Shown piece after piece: positions 40,085 to 46,650 of a DNA stretch of 64,000 nt. Both the position numbers and the translations under genes were made by a program. The number at the start of each line of letters is the position of its first letter. The stretch's first letter is position 1. The stretch covers positions 1,088,001 to 1,152,000 of the forward strand of contig CM000155.2 in NCBI GenBank assembly GCA_000004695.1, written 5' to 3'. This DNA is from Dictyostelium discoideum. Lineage: Eukaryota. A model generated the notes under the pieces. The model saw only the letters and a list, made by a program, of their open reading frames with translations, had not been told where the DNA came from and did no database searches.

Positions 40085-41590
40085 ATTACACTTTTTTTTT
40101 TTTTGATATAAATAAACTATTGTAGTATACAATTAGTATGTTATTTTTATTTATTTTAGGTTTTTTAGTTTTTGTGAATTTAAAATGGTATGTTATTTTA
40201 GATTAGGTAATTAATAATTAATTGGTTCATTTGTGTTTATGCTCCATTCTTTTTTAATTTTTTTGATGGTTTCAGACCATTCGGTTTCTTTTTGAGTTTT
40301 TGTGAGGTTGTTTTTAATTGAGTATTGGTTAAAGTTTGATAATGTTCTTGAATATTCCAATCTTATTAGCTTGTGCCATTTTGATTTTAATATATCATAA
40401 TCTAGTGTTGTGTTGTTTATTTGGTTGTTCCAATTGTCAATTGATTGAGTTATATTGATGTCAAATAATGATTTGTATAACCATATCCATATTTGGTGAA
40501 TAACTAATGAGATTATGTTCCAATATGCATGTGTTCTGACTAGATCAAGATTTGTGTTTATATAATTCCAGTTGAACCTGTATTTTTTATATTGTGCGTT
40601 TTCTGCAAAATGGAAATTAATATTGATAGTTGGATCTGGTTTAAATGCTTTGTTGTTTGTTTGTGGTTTATAAATGAGTGTGTATAATTTTGTTGTTTGG
40701 TTTTTTGTTAGTGACCAGTTTTTGATTCCATTGCAATTTTTATATATAAAATTTTTTAATTTGTCGTGGTTTATGAAGTTGATTGTGTGCTGACAATTGA
40801 AAAACAAATGACCATAGGGATCATTATTCATTTCATTGTTGCAAATGGGGCAAACATTGTTGTGTAGATGATTAATCGGAAGACATCTAGCATGGAATCT
40901 TTGCATTGTATCACGGCCTTTTGGATCTTTTAGCTTTTGAATTTTGACAAATAGTTGGTCGTATGTGTATTTCCATAATAGTTGTATTGATTGTTGGTGC
41001 GACGTAAGAAGTAGATCTGAATATTTCTTGCCAATATAGTCTTTTGATTTACATTGATGATTGTTGAGTATTGTCGAGTAGATTTCTTTGAGTGTTGGTG
41101 GTAGTGAAATATTATTTGTGGTTAATGTTTGAGAGGTTTGGTTTTTTATTAATATTGGTTGAAGGGTTTGAACTTTATCTTTTAGATGTCCAATTTGAGT
41201 TGCATAGTTTTCCCATTCTTTTTTGATTTTTATAAGGTATGGAGAAGAGATTGATTTGTTGATGATTTGATCCATCCAACTTATCATGTATATTGAATTG
41301 TTTGCAGATTTATGCATTTGTAAAAATCTGTTGTATATCCAAATCTTTTGAGCAACTTGTCGTAATTGTATATTCCACATACCCCAACCACCTTCTTTTA
41401 ATGGTTTTAATGATCTATCATAACACATCAAAGGTATTTTTGCACGTGAATGGATGGTTGATGTGTTGTTTTCAATGGAATTGGTATTGAGAGTTGGTGA
41501 TTCAGAATTTGCGGAAGAATTCATAAACCATGAGATTAATTTATTAATTTGAATTTCTTCATCTTTTGTAAATTCTTCAAGGTATGATAT
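40085..41590 (-). mobile_element. Second, diverged TRE3-type element fragment (ORF2 C-terminal third), 5'-truncated next to tRNA-Ser copy 3
   Basis: ORF 40211..41524(-) ..KEGGWGMWNIQLRQVAQKIWIYNRF..RDTMQRFHARCLPINHLHNNVCPICNNEMNNDPYGHLFFNC.. is about 45% identical to the C-terminal part of the plus-strand element (..VGGWNIWNIELRQLAQKLWIINQF..RFHARCLPINYLHNKQCPLCKEDMSKDPYGHLFFSC). It begins about 40 bp downstream of tRNA copy 3. The shared junction flank is tttacgaacttcggatatatcatac. A T14 run on the plus strand at about 40085 marks the element's poly(A). Confidence 0.65.
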
Positions 41591-41629
41591 ATCCGAAGTT
41601 CGTAAACTTGTGATTCATTCAAAAGGAAT

Positions 41630-41711
41630 CGACATCGGCAGGGTTCGAACCTGCGCCTCCTAGGAGATTTGATTTCAAGTCAAACGCGTTAGACCACTTC
41701 GCTACGATGTC
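41630..41711 (-). tRNA. tRNA-Ser (UGA), copy 3 of 4
   Basis: Identical 82-nt sequence to the other copies. The 5' leader is shared with copy 2. Confidence 0.85.
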
Positions 41712-41759
41712 TTTGATGAAAATCAAAATTTATAGCTGAAATACTATTAGAAATAGGGA

Positions 41760-42423
41760 GATCGAAAAAAACAAACAACAACAACAATCTCTTTTTTTGA
41801 TTATTTCATTTTTCATATAAAAAAGACTTAAAAAACAAATAAATAAATAAATAAACTATTTTAAAAAGCCATCTTTTTACTTTATTGTAATTTATTATTT
41901 GTTTCGTTTTGAGAATTTTGCGTAGCAAAATTTTCAAAAAAAAAGCAAAAAATAATCAGATCGAAAAAAACAAACAACAACAACAATCTCTTTTTTTGAT
42001 TATTTCATTTTTCATATAAAAAAGACTTAAAAAACAAATAAATAAATAAATAAACTATTTTAAAAAGCCATCTTTTTACTTTATTGTAATTTATTATTTG
42101 TTTCGTTTTGAGAATTTTGCGTAGCAAAATTTTCAAAAAAAAAGCAAAAAATAATCAGATCGAAAAAAACAAACAACAACAACAATCTCTTTTTTTGATT
42201 ATTTCATTTTTCATATAAAAAAGACTTAAAAAAAAAATAAATAAATAAATAAACTTTTTTAAAAAGCCATCTTTTTACTTTATTGTAATTTATTATTTGT
42301 TTCGTTTTGAGAATTTTGCGTAGCAAAATTTTCAAAAAAAAAGCAAAAAATAATCAGATCGAAAAAAACAAACAACAACAACAATCTCTTTTTTTGATTA
42401 TTTCATTTTTCATATAAAAAAGA

Positions 42424-42425
<2 letters not shown>
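41760..42425 (+). repeat. Tandem array, about 199-bp unit x 3.3 (TRE5-A A-module-type 5' repeats)
   Basis: The unit starts with gatcgaaaaaaacaaacaacaacaacaatctctttttttgattatttcatttttcatataaaaaagactt.. at 41760, 41958, 42158 and 42357. Copies are nearly identical, followed by A55 (42426-42480). The array begins 48 bp upstream of the 5' end of tRNA copy 3. Confidence 0.8.
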
Positions 42426-42484
<59 letters not shown>

Positions 42485-42559
42485 GGAACCAAGTTAATTA
42501 GAAAATTTCCAGATTTTTAACTTTTTAAAGAAAAATAAAAAAGATAGAAAGAAAATAAA

Positions 42560-43894
42560 ATGAAAATCACAAACAACACCACAAATATTAAGCAACACAA
42601 ATGCCTACAAAAAATAAGCGAAATTGTGGATAAAACTCAATTAAAAAAAAAACAATTCAAATACGTCATAAACATCAATCACGAACCAGACGATAAAATA
42701 AAAAAAGATTTAGAAAAAAGTTTGGACAAAAAAGATGTTTTAATCAAAAGTAATAATACATTCAAAATTCTCACAGACAGTATTAGTACAGTAATCTATT
42801 TTGTAAATATGTTTGATGCAGAATTAAAAGGACAATTTATAACCACTATAAGACCAAAAAATATGTATACAGATTTTGATTGGTATAAATCACTCACAGA
42901 AATAGAATGGGTAATAGAAAATGAAGGATGTAAACTAATTAAATCAGAAATTAAAGGCGAAACTCTAATTATCAAAACAGTGAAAAGAGTCGTAGAAGAA
43001 TTTGACACTATCATTGAACTAGACAATCTAACATTAATTGGACACTCCAACAAAGGATGGAGAGATCAAACCTCATTACCAGAAAATCAAGAAGAAAACA
43101 AAAATAAAAAACAATCAGATGAACAACAACCACAATCTACATCAGAACAAATACCAAAACAAGGAAAAAGAACAATCATTATCCCACCAATCACATCCTC
43201 ATCTAATGATAAAACATTTATGGCCCTAGATGATACAGCTCAAAAGGTAATAGAAGCATCACTAGAAAACGTAGATGAACTAACAAGAATAGAGAATGAG
43301 ATCAATACACAATCGATAAACAATCAAGAAATTAAAACAAAATCAGAAAAACCTATCGAACCACCATCTCCATACAATACACCAATAAAACAACACGGCG
43401 AAACAAAGGGACTAACAACGGAAGAAAAACTTAGAGAGGCAAATGATATCTTCGACTTCACCAGCCCAAACACTGATGCAATAAGAAAAATAGAATTCCC
43501 ACTTTCAATCCCTTCAAATCAATGGTTCTTCTCCTCTCCAATAAAACATATCATGAGTTTCAGCCCAACCTATGGTACACCATCGAAAATTATCGATTCA
43601 CCAAGTAAATTGTTAAACACACCAAAAAAGAAACAACAAGACAAAACAAACAAGACCAACAAAACACCAGTCAAACCAAAATTGGGTGAATATGGACAAA
43701 AAAGCATAAAAACAAAAATGGATGAAGATATAGACAACTTCAACAAGGAAATTCTAAAACAAATCAATAAATCAAAAAACCCCACAAACACACAAGACCA
43801 ACAACACAATGAACAAAGTAAAGATCAGTTAGAAGACAAAATAAACCAGAAACTTCAAAAGGTAGATAAAAATCTACCCCAAATAAAACTATAA
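42560..43894 (+). CDS. TRE5-A ORF1 protein (about 51 kDa), intact 444-codon ORF
   Basis: Uninterrupted ORF MKITNNTTNIKQHKCLQKISEIVDKTQLKKKQFKYVININHEPDDKIKK... A second truncated copy of its first 64 codons (identical) lies at 44290..44490. Confidence 0.7.
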   Translation: MKITNNTTNIKQHKCLQKISEIVDKTQLKKKQFKYVININHEPDDKIKKDLEKSLDKKDVLIKSNNTFKILTDSISTVIYFVNMFDAELKGQFITTIRPKNMYTDFDWYKSLTEIEWVIENEGCKLIKSEIKGETLIIKTVKRVVEEFDTIIELDNLTLIGHSNKGWRDQTSLPENQEENKNKKQSDEQQPQSTSEQIPKQGKRTIIIPPITSSSNDKTFMALDDTAQKVIEASLENVDELTRIENEINTQSINNQEIKTKSEKPIEPPSPYNTPIKQHGETKGLTTEEKLREANDIFDFTSPNTDAIRKIEFPLSIPSNQWFFSSPIKHIMSFSPTYGTPSKIIDSPSKLLNTPKKKQQDKTNKTNKTPVKPKLGEYGQKSIKTKMDEDIDNFNKEILKQINKSKNPTNTQDQQHNEQSKDQLEDKINQKLQKVDKNLPQIKL

Positions 43895-44190
43895 AGAAAA
43901 ACACAATAAGAATAGGTGTTTGGAACGTCCAAGGATCCAACACCATCCAATCTGCCAGCATAATAAACACCGTTTTAGACAACAACAAGCTGGACGCAGC
44001 ACTTCTAACTGAAACAAATATAAAAACAAATAAAATTTACTCAATAAATCAACAATATAAAAACAAAATAACACACCACGCACCAATTGATAAAACAGGA
44101 CAAGGGGTGTCACAAATCATCATCAACACCCGCAATAGAACTTCCTAAACATCTCAAAAAATACAATAATTCACTCAGTACTTTCTATAA

Positions 44191-44243
<53 letters not shown>

Positions 44244-44248
<5 letters not shown>

Positions 44249-44940
44249 CAAGTTAATCAGAAAAATAAAAAAGATAGAAAGAAAATAAAATGAAAATCAC
44301 AAACAACACCACAAATATTAAGCAACACAAATGCCTACAAAAAATAAGCGAAATTGTGGATAAAACTCAATTAAAAAAAAAACAATTCAAATACGTCATA
44401 AACATCAATCACGAACCAGACGATAAAATAAAAAAAGATTTAGAAAAAAGTTTGGACAAAAAAGATGTTTTAATCAAAAAGACCCTGTAAAAAAAAAAAA
44501 AAATAAAATGAGATCTAGCATCTCAAGGAGAAGCAAATAATAATTGCGTTATCCAATTCAAAAAAAAAAAAACTATTAGAAATAGGAGTAAAAGATAGTT
44601 TTGAAGTAATAGTAATAGTGAATTGAAGTTATCATTGCCCCATGCACATGATTTCAGTTTTTCGAAAGATTGCTAGATTATCATGTGAAGTTTCTTCTTA
44701 CAGCATATAATCTTCGGCATCCTCTGTTTGCATATATAAATATCTCTTGTAGCAAACCACGTTTATCTAATATGCAAGAGCATAAAACTTGCAAGCATTC
44801 CAGGTTCTTGCTCCCTTACTATATATGAGCTAACGTTCTCTACTTCCTCATAAGGTTGGTGGCCTTGCAAGCACTAACTCCTTCCTTATTCTTGACCGAC
44901 ACCATTTCTTATTATTACTATTATTATTATAAACGAAAAA
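44244..44940 (+). mobile_element. Second TRE5-A fragment: 5'UTR end + first 66 codons of ORF1 fused to a lower-AT non-coding 3' module (C-module-like)
   Basis: 44244-44490 duplicates 42500-42750 (..aagatagaaagaaaataaaATGAAAATCACAAACAACACC..), then breaks at KKDVLIK|KTL*. A roughly 450-bp unique-complexity segment (44500-44940) follows, a typical internally deleted TRE5-A derivative. Confidence 0.55.
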
Positions 44941-45094
44941 TTGTTTTTATATTCTATTTTTTTTTATTTTTATTTTTTATTTTCTGTTTTCTGTTTTAAA
45001 AAACCGAACTTCATTTTTTTTTTTACCTAAAAGCGGTGTAAAACCGAACTTCGTAAAATATCAATATATTTTACACGATTCATTGAAAAGGTAT

Positions 45095-45176
45095 CGACAT
45101 CGGCAGGGTTCGAACCTGCGCCTCCTAGGAGATTTGATTTCAAGTCAAACGCGTTAGACCACTTCGCTACGATGTC
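45095..45176 (-). tRNA. tRNA-Ser (UGA), copy 4 of 4
   Basis: Identical 82-nt sequence. The 5' leader is ..ttttcatcaaag, and the 3' flank has a ttacgaagttcgg ex-B-like box. Confidence 0.85.
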
Positions 45177-45424
45177 TTTGATGAAAATTGAATTTAAGTG
45201 CATGTAATTTTTTTACTACTCAAATTCAAATTTTTTATCACTTTGGTCCGTTCAAAATTTTTTTTCTACTTCAGTTCCAGCTGGCCTAAAAAACATCAAC
45301 AAAACAGAAACAGAAACATCAACAAAAACAACAGCATCCAAAGCTTATAACAAAACAATTTTTTTTTTTTTTGATTAATATTTAAATTAAATTTTTTAAT
45401 CATTTTAAAACAAATAACTTAATC

Positions 45425-45461
<37 letters not shown>

Positions 45462-46650
45462 TCTTGATTGTGGATATATACACAAATTCCAGCTGATTTT
45501 TTAAAATGTACTTTGGAAAATCTAAACTCAATTATTTTTCTTGTTCATATTCAACTAATAAATTCTATTTTAAAAAAAAAAACAAAATTATTGTTTGCTT
45601 TTATTTTTTTCATTTTGATGTTTTTTCTTTTTTTATTTTAGTGTTCTTTATTTATTTATTTTGATATTCTTTTTTTTATTTTTTTTTTTTTTTTGAAAAC
45701 AAGGAATTGCAAAGATAAAGTTTCGGGAAGGCTCTGAAATAAAAAAAAAAAAATTGAAAAATAAAAAAAATTTGAAAAAATATTTAAGGCTCTGAAATAA
45801 AAAAAAAAAAAAATCCAACTTTTAATAATAACTATTGTAATAAATAAAATGTCAATAAAAAAATTTTTCAAAAATAAAAAAAATAAACTTTCAAACCTCT
45901 ATGCCAATTATTTGTTTACAAAAAATTTTAAAATGTAAATAAGGAAAAAAAAAAAAAAGAAAAAAAGAAATTATAAAATGAAAAATATCTTGGGTGGTTG
46001 GTGATTATTTTGGGAGTGGGCGAAAAAAAAAAATTAATGAAAAAAAAAATTATAAAAATCTTTTTAGCCCCATCCCAAACCAATCTATTATTAATGAAAA
46101 AAAAAATAAAAAAAAGAAAACCAATCCAAATGATCTCTCTCAAAAAAAAACATTACTTTCACTTATATTAGGGAATAAAAGTTATTATTACGCTATAAAA
46201 ATAGAAAATAAACTTTACCATAAATTTTTTAAAAATGGTTTTTTTTTTTTTTTTTTTTATTTTTTTTATTTTTTTTATAAAAATCTTTTTTTTGATAAAA
46301 TCTCATTCTTTTTTCCAAATGTATCAATGTTCTCAGATTATTATAATAAAAAACTCTTGTAAATAAAAAAAGACCTCAGAGTTTTACGAATTTTTTGGTA
46401 AGTGTTTTATTTTATTTTATTTTTTTTTTATTTTTTTTTTTATTTTTTTTTTTTTTTCCACCAAACCAAAATTTGCATTTTATATATCGTAATTTTTGAT
46501 CAAAAATAGTTTTTGATTTTTATTTTTTTTTTTTAAATTTTTATTTTTTATTTTATTTTTTCTTTTTTCTTATTTTCTTTTTAATATTATTATTTTAATT
46601 ATTATTTTTTTTTTTTTTTTTAAAAAATAAAAAATTTTGATTAAATAATA

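Follow-up and report, generated by a model that had tools for sequence, protein, structure and literature searches.

Does the TRE5-A-like sequence beside a tRNA-Ser(UGA) gene of Dictyostelium discoideum represent one retrotransposon or two, and did the loss of most of its second open reading frame (ORF2) occur at this locus or earlier in the family? These questions arise in a stretch of 64,000 nucleotides (nt) from contig CM000155.2 of assembly GCA_000004695.1 (positions 1,088,001 to 1,152,000, forward strand), which is called the window below. The host assignment agrees with a very AT-rich region and with 99-100% identity between the ORF1 product of the element and proteins of strain AX4. A sequence-only reading of the window had proposed a TRE5-A-like element at 41712-44243 followed by a second piece at 44244-44940. 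We find a single insertion of 2,814 base pairs (bp) on the plus strand (41758-44571), which is almost certainly a complete TRE5-A.2, the non-autonomous derivative of the retrotransposon TRE5-A (formerly DRE) in which ORF2 is deleted. TRE5-A.2 is an already known element of a well-annotated model genome; it has reportedly been described since 1992 and serves as an experimental model for tRNA-gene-targeted retrotransposition.

Published descriptions of the family supplied the yardsticks. The autonomous TRE5-A.1, AB-ORF1/ORF2-BC, is defined as a single element; its A-module (200 bp) acts as the plus-strand promoter, its B-module (290 bp), within which ORF1 starts, recurs in the 3′ untranslated region, and its C-module measures 134-137 bp (PMC3159450). 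TRE5-A.2 is AB-ORF1-BC; it has a large ORF2 deletion and has lost 72 bp of BC, so that the 3′-terminal 87 bp of C remain (PMC3159450). ORF1 encodes a 51-kD protein, ORF2 is reached by a -1 frameshift, and integration takes place 44-54 bp upstream of tRNA genes in opposite orientation (PMC5911963). For comparison, we used nine loci with an identical ORF1 product from another D. discoideum assembly, GCA_054883475.1. One of them (L009) is the orthologous locus, and two also hold full-length elements, which served as references (L002, 10034 to about 15870; L003, 1808 to about 7400).

One insertion upstream of a tRNA-Ser gene

The integration target is the tRNA-Ser(UGA) gene at 41630-41711 on the minus strand (ARAGORN; Rfam RF00005, 64.8 bits). 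Its 5′ end points toward the 5′ end of the element, the two being oppositely oriented. The distance from this gene to position 41760, where the sequence-only reading had started the repeat, is indeed 48 bp, and 46 bp separate it from the true junction at 41758; with 46-48 bp in opposite orientation, the placement lies inside the published TRE5-A range. An Rfam scan of 41000-46000 (E <= 1) returned two tRNAs only.

A direct-repeat search of the window revealed a 15-bp target-site duplication, ACTATTAGAAATAGG, on the plus strand. Its 5′ copy (41743-41757) abuts the left side of the A-module array and its 3′ copy (44572-44586) abuts an oligo(A) run on the right. This run, preceded by "...TTATCCAATTC", is the 3′ tail of the element, which comparison of the copies placed at 44560-44571 on the plus strand with a length of 12-13 nt. 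Thus, both hallmarks of target-primed reverse transcription were found, the 15-bp duplication and the A12-13 tail. The homology of all nine fetched loci with the element in the window ends at 44569-44572. Because the direct repeat and the divergence point of all other copies coincide here, the element ends at 44571, and both previously proposed 3′ ends, 44243 and 44940, were wrong.

The same geometry recurs elsewhere. A script detected separate 14-16-bp duplications at the same two positions in the single-insertion copies, whereas the L003 copy, nested inside another element, has a longer repeat containing the A-run instead. The other copies lie 45-58 bp from tRNA-His, Val, Ser, Ala, and Gly genes in a like arrangement. 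BLAST detected no further TRE5-A copies in the 64-kb window.

Could the region nevertheless hold two adjacent insertions, one element ending at an internal A tract (41758-44246) and a 5′-truncated fragment beginning at 44247, in which a C-like end is joined to the start of ORF1? The long uninterrupted stretch of A at 44193-44246, which follows an AATAAA-like sequence, does resemble a poly(A) tail, and tandem TRE5-A insertions exist, for instance at L002 and L003. However, no duplication surrounds the internal A tract, the sole one bracketing 41758-44571; full-length TRE5-A.1 has an identical poly(A)-B-C succession after ORF2; the same arrangement is present in all nine other A.2 copies; and the literature treats AB-ORF1/ORF2-BC as one element (PMC3159450). 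The single duplication together with the identical arrangement in the other copies effectively refutes two insertions, which we regard as extremely improbable. The supposed separate second piece at 44244-44940 thus begins with the canonical B-C 3′ end belonging to one and the same element.

Internal organization and coding capacity

From 5′ to 3′, the copy follows the canonical layout (A)n-A'-poly(A)-B-ORF1-dORF2-poly(A)-B'-C'-oligo(A). The A-module array, considered in detail further below, is followed by a first internal poly(A) spacer, A54, at 42427-42480 on the plus strand, between the partial A-module and the B-module (Tandem Repeats Finder and comparison of A-runs). This spacer measures A23-A42 in the other copies and A35-A37 in TRE5-A.1. 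The 5′ B-module (42481-42770, plus strand, 290 bp) was delimited by homology to the 3′ B-module of full-length TRE5-A.1, a homology that in the 5′ part of the window element spans 42431-42770. It includes the start codon of ORF1 at 42560.

ORF1 (42560-43894, plus strand) was taken from the list of open reading frames and examined by protein comparison. It is the complete frame of 444 codons that had been described from the sequence, and it encodes a protein of 51.3 kDa. The product does not differ from AX4 proteins such as EAL60658.1, nor from ORF1 at the nine loci. Relative to ORF1 of TRE5-A.1, it shows 98% amino-acid identity with 10 fixed amino-acid changes, and the frame is intact, with no disrupting differences. 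Homologues were confined to Dictyostelium in the protein search, and the 444 amino acids gave no Pfam match.

The -1 frame opens at 43870, overlapping the end of ORF1 by 25 nt, and carries an N-terminal remnant of ORF2 (43870-44148, plus strand), as recognized by comparison with full-length ORF2. The remnant consists of 87 authentic codons (43870-44130), with which the endonuclease domain begins, and of 5 codons read out of frame before a TAA at 44146-44148. A Pfam search with this 92-amino-acid stub yielded nothing meaningful. In the full-length elements at L002 and L003, the 444-amino-acid ORF1 is followed by an ORF2 frame of 1,152 codons, in which we detected RVT_1 (E = 2.9e-33), a weak zf-RVT, and a sub-threshold Exo_endo_phos match at residues 18-195 (E = 0.021).

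The window sequence matches L002 colinearly as far as 44131 (L002 12190), and the match continues from L002 15325 onward. This defines the ORF2 deletion junction, CAACACCC|GCAATAG, at 44131/44132 on the plus strand. Compared with TRE5-A.1, 3,134 bp are absent (L002 12191-15324); the junction has 1 nt of microhomology and causes a frameshift. What follows at 44132-44194 on the plus strand is the terminal 63 nt of ORF2 with the stop codon (comparison with L002), out of frame with the N-terminal remnant.

Contrary to the initial description, the A-rich tract is not where ORF2 stops. The frame breaks at 44131/44132 and reaches a stop codon at 44146-44148, and the tract itself is the 3′ internal poly(A) spacer, A54 (44193-44246, plus strand), located by comparison of A-runs directly before the 3′ B-module. 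Since the full-length elements carry the same tract between ORF2 and the second B-module (A40-A41 in TRE5-A.1), it is not a break point; both internal A tracts are canonical spacers. The two A54 spacers of the window are the longest among the 10 copies compared. Equal spacer lengths within one copy (54/54 in the window, 40/40 in L009) were tested as a rule, which did not hold, the other copies being unequal.

The 3′ B-module is present in the A.2 form (44247-44479, plus strand, 233 bp; repeat search and alignment of copies), with losses of 8 nt at the beginning, about 29 nt inside, and 21 nt at the end. Its positions 44259-44479 are 100% identical to 42529-42749 (221 bp). The duplication of the first 64 ORF1 codons, already noticed from the sequence, is therefore real; these codons reappear because the 3′ B-module copies the 5′ B-module, which holds the ORF1 start. 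At the orthologous locus, a public gene prediction of 499 amino acids (L009 9717-13765) begins at an ATG within the 3′ B-module and is probably an annotation artefact arising from the duplicated ORF1 start.

Beyond the B/C junction AATCAAAA|AGACCCTG at 44479/44480, which is invariant across copies, an 80-bp remnant of the 3′-terminal part of the C-module extends over 44480-44559 on the plus strand, as judged against the 137-bp C-module of TRE5-A.1 (L002 15723-15859). Relative to L002 15701-15769, about 69-72 bp are absent, and 80 bp of C plus the tail are kept, a figure that varies with the lengths of the A-runs. The two break points, once placed at 44150 and 44490, thus lie at 44131/44132 and 44479/44480. 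The last ~54 nt of the C-module are identical to TRE5-A.1, and the 3′ part of the module is predicted to fold into two hairpins (-11.3 kcal/mol, z = -2.9). Mutagenesis has shown the C-module stem-loops to be essential for retrotransposition (PMC3159450), and in this copy they are intact.

Internal deletions shared among copies

Where did the two deletions arise? Both junctions are identical to the base in all 10 aligned copies (the window and the nine loci). Among these copies we counted 0-3 substitutions per 2.07 kb, with none between the window copy and L001, L006, or L009, which marks TRE5-A.2 as a young family. In the A-modules and ORF1, too, the A.2 copies depart from A.1 at common, fixed positions. 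Together, the common junctions, the common B/C deletion, and the common A.2-specific substitutions show a single ancestral event: the deletions arose once, in an ancestral master copy, and then spread by retrotransposition, rather than having occurred at this locus.

A different history, in which a full-length TRE5-A.1 inserted here and later lost most of ORF2 by a local deletion, would be compatible with the 1 nt of microhomology at the junction. Yet that junction is shared to the base with nine other loci, the B/C deletion and the small deletions in the 3′ B-module are likewise shared, and so are the A.2-specific substitutions in the A-modules and ORF1. The shared junctions refute a local deletion, to which we attach practically no credence.

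Insertion of an already deleted TRE5-A.2 accounts for the structure in every respect that we compared. The modules have the expected dimensions (199-bp A units, a 290-bp B-module duplicated in the 3′ part, a C remnant at the 3′ end), the proteins agree (a 51.3-kDa ORF1 and an ORF2 frame offset by -1), and so do the features particular to TRE5-A.2 (the 3,134-bp ORF2 deletion; the ~70-bp B/C deletion, with 80 bp of C plus the tail kept; the C stem-loop). Position and orientation relative to the tRNA gene, target-site duplication, A/B/C modules, ORF1, both deletions, and oligo(A) tail are all in agreement with TRE5-A.2 (DRE subform b). The proposal of a non-autonomous, internally deleted TRE5-A derivative with an ORF2 stub was therefore correct and can be specified as TRE5-A.2 by the published structure and the shared junctions. 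From other TRE5-A.2 copies, the one in the window differs only in lengths (3.35 A-modules, two A54 spacers, a tail of 12-13 nt).

It shares with the autonomous TRE5-A.1 (about 5.7 kb) the (A)n-A'-poly(A)-B 5′ end, 87 codons at the beginning and 21 at the end of the ORF2 frame, the poly(A) spacer that separates ORF2 from the 3′ B-module, and the last ~80 bp of C. In contrast to TRE5-A.1, it lacks most of the endonuclease and all of the reverse transcriptase and zinc finger (3,134 bp of ORF2) as well as about 47 bp of C; its 3′ B-module is shorter by about 37 bp at the beginning and by 21 bp at the end, and its A-modules carry fixed substitutions.

Nothing in the sequence speaks against this identification, which has some limits. 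It relies on agreement with structural values from the literature and on comparison with copies that bear no label, two full-length ones among them, rather than on a named TRE5-A.2 record, and the matching public protein records bear only the name "hypothetical protein". The count of 3.35 A-modules depends on the correctness of the assembly of the window. Finally, transcription, about which the sequence-only reading had asked, and mobilization in trans are settled for the family, in which TRE5-A.2 was shown experimentally to be retrotransposition-competent using the ORF2 protein of TRE5-A.1 (PMC3159450, PMC5391098); this individual copy may share both properties.

A promoter array of variable length

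The A-module array occupies 41758-42426 and represents the plus-strand promoter region, as identified by its period of 199, by BLAST, and by alignment with the A-modules of TRE5-A.1. Tandem Repeats Finder reported a period of 199 bp over 41759-42452, with 3.5 copies and 98% matches. The near-identity of the repeats that had been noted before is thereby confirmed: in the BLAST comparison, the unit at 41760-41958 is followed by a 100% identical one at 41959-42157 and by a third at 42158-42356 that differs by 2 substitutions, around 42235 and 42258 (99%). A fourth unit is partial, comprising the first 70 nt (42357-42426); it stops after "GACTT" and is followed by pure A54. The array thus amounts to 3.35 A-modules.

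A terminal partial unit followed by the poly(A) spacer ends every array, in A.1 and A.2 alike. The number of A-modules in the other copies was 1.35, 2.3, 8.3, 9.3, and ~21.35. Because of this range, from 1.35 to ~21.35 units, the array in the window is normal for the TRE5-A family and nothing special at this locus. The longest arrays were observed in TRE5-A.2 copies that are otherwise identical (L006 3629-7905, ~21.35 units; L001 6226-7909, 9.3 units; L007 6218-7905, 8.35 units). The original description by Marschalek et al. 1992 (Mol Cell Biol 12:229) is said to mention "one or multiple A modules".

Several full-length copies begin exactly at AGATCG, the first bases of the A unit. An extra G precedes AGATCG at position 41758 of the window (the same insertion as in L009), at about 7620 in L005, and at about 3627 in L006. 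Inside the array, a C takes the position that this G holds at the 5′ junction. The extra G fits a transcription start at the unit boundary, combined with a non-templated or cap-derived G. Since a transcript initiated in the first unit would include the entire array, the daughter copy would receive all of its units, and array length would be heritable via RNA.

A comparison with the orthologous locus raises the question whether arrays also change after integration. The two assemblies contain the same insertion, with a shared ACTATTAGAAATAGG duplication, but 3.35 units in the window as against 1.35 in L009 (L009 7567-7921 vs window 41714-42480). Their flanks differ by 13 substitutions in 10.5 kb (0.12%). 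Either the array changed after insertion in one of the lineages or one of the assemblies is in error. If the latter applied to the window, the assignment to TRE5-A.2 would hold, and the length of 3.35 units would be uninformative about the recent expansion that the sequence-only reading had derived from the near-perfect repeats. For such an artefact speaks the fact that L009 has only 1.35 units between flanks differing by as little as 0.12%, and near-identical tandem repeats and 54-A homopolymers are hard to assemble. On the other side, unit 3 has two private substitutions, unlike a simple duplication artefact, and the other assembly resolves arrays from 1.35 to ~21 units, so that length variation as such is real. 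On balance, we consider an artefact unlikely, and the two private substitutions in unit 3 mildly favour a real difference in array length. The further idea that the A-array is a dynamic array of promoter monomers, changing its length after integration at a fixed locus, is one we hold tentatively and would place slightly on the doubtful side of even.

Neighbouring sequences

Directly outside the 3′ target-site duplication lies a block of 354 bp (44587-44940), whose GC content of 34% stands out from the 18-21% of the surrounding spacer DNA. It had been counted as part of a C-module-like 3′ end. That assignment stands for the genuine C remnant at 44480-44559 only; BLAST against the window and the fetched loci revealed no similarity between the block and any TRE5-A module. 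In the same sequences, no relatives of the block were found except at the orthologous L009. It contains no long open reading frame in the six frames and has no Rfam match. Folding gave z = -2.3 for the plus strand and -0.1 for the minus strand, and the termini show weak (AAT)n-type inverted ends only.

Before the insertion, the block began about 47 bp upstream of the tRNA-Ser gene at 41630-41711. Possibly it is what is left of an older repeat associated with tRNA genes, such as an H3R/DGLT-A long terminal repeat (LTR) or a similar one. The solo LTR of DGLT-A, H3R, comprises 265 bp and lies 13-33 bp upstream of a tRNA gene, and in non-solo copies of DGLT-A the primer-binding site TGGCGACATCGTCTTTC adjoins the left LTR (PMC5006619). 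This site does not occur in the window with up to 3 mismatches allowed, and the block is ~354 bp long.

ARAGORN predicted four tRNA-Ser(UGA) genes in the 64 kb (9223-9304; 36940-37021, plus strand; 41630-41711 and 45095-45176, both on the minus strand), and Rfam agrees on the pair that brackets the element (41630-41711 and 45095-45176). The members of this pair are 96% identical over 119 bp, short flanks included, an identity that indicates a local duplication of the tRNA gene.

At the orthologous locus, L009 4127-7566 replaces window positions 41522-41713, so that the target tRNA-Ser gene and the 109-bp spacer downstream of it are absent there. The replacing sequence is a 3.4-kb TRE3-like element that has an intact reverse-transcriptase frame of 1,059 amino acids on the minus strand and a poly(A) end at window position 41521/41522. 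This change looks like a TRE3 insertion with concomitant loss of its own target tRNA gene, or else it reflects a rearrangement or misassembly.

A further TRE3-like non-LTR element, truncated at its 5′ end, occupies 37139-39682 on the plus strand, 118 bp downstream of the tRNA-Ser gene at 36940-37021 (plus strand) and oriented like that gene. The element gave an RVT_1 match; its ORF2 is split by a frameshift into 282 and 521 amino acids, and its tail is A38. A stretch of 37 bp before its 5′ end (37105-37141) is repeated near its 3′ end (39482-39518). On the minus strand, an open reading frame of 437 codons (40211-41524) starts about 106 bp downstream of the tRNA-Ser gene at 41630-41711 and on the same strand; it has no Pfam match and may either belong to the host or represent an ORF1 of the TRE3 type.

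Discussion

The anatomy, the position, the duplication, and the family membership of the element are visible in this sequence, and the literature on the family supplies the steps by which such a copy would move. RNA polymerase II would start plus-strand transcription in the A-module, and the ORF1 protein (51 kDa) would be translated from the ATG in the B-module, act preferentially in cis, and contact TFIIIB bound at the tRNA gene; for the family, this cis preference has been documented by experiment. Endonuclease and reverse transcriptase, i.e., the ORF2 protein, would be supplied in trans by full-length TRE5-A.1. This protein would recognize the stem-loop that the C-module forms within its final ~54 nt, nick the DNA ~48 bp upstream of the tRNA gene, and copy the RNA by target-primed reverse transcription. 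Antisense transcription may originate from the C-module, for which the literature describes an antisense promoter, and the host factor CbfA would support the element.

Parallels exist in mammals. HAL1 is an ORF1-only derivative of a long interspersed nuclear element (LINE) that has kept ORF1 and the 3′ end, has lost ORF2, and relies on the ORF2 protein of autonomous relatives. It belongs to a different lineage, and TRE5-A.2 differs from it in targeting tRNA genes. The 5′ monomer arrays of mouse L1 consist of tandem promoter units of ~200 bp in variable copy number and often start with a truncated unit. Their sequences are unrelated to those of TRE5-A, whose array ends in a fixed partial unit and a poly(A) spacer.

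Beyond correct annotation, the importance of this copy is small. The gain is a base-accurate map of its boundaries, its two deletion junctions, and its two spacers, in which a false second piece and 354 bp wrongly assigned to the C-module have been removed. In addition, the number of A-modules varies widely among otherwise identical copies and apparently also between assemblies at this locus. If the A-array were indeed a dynamic promoter array that changes its length after integration, promoter dosage could differ greatly between individual non-autonomous copies, as in the monomer arrays of mouse L1, and array length would be a fast-evolving determinant of which copies serve as master elements.

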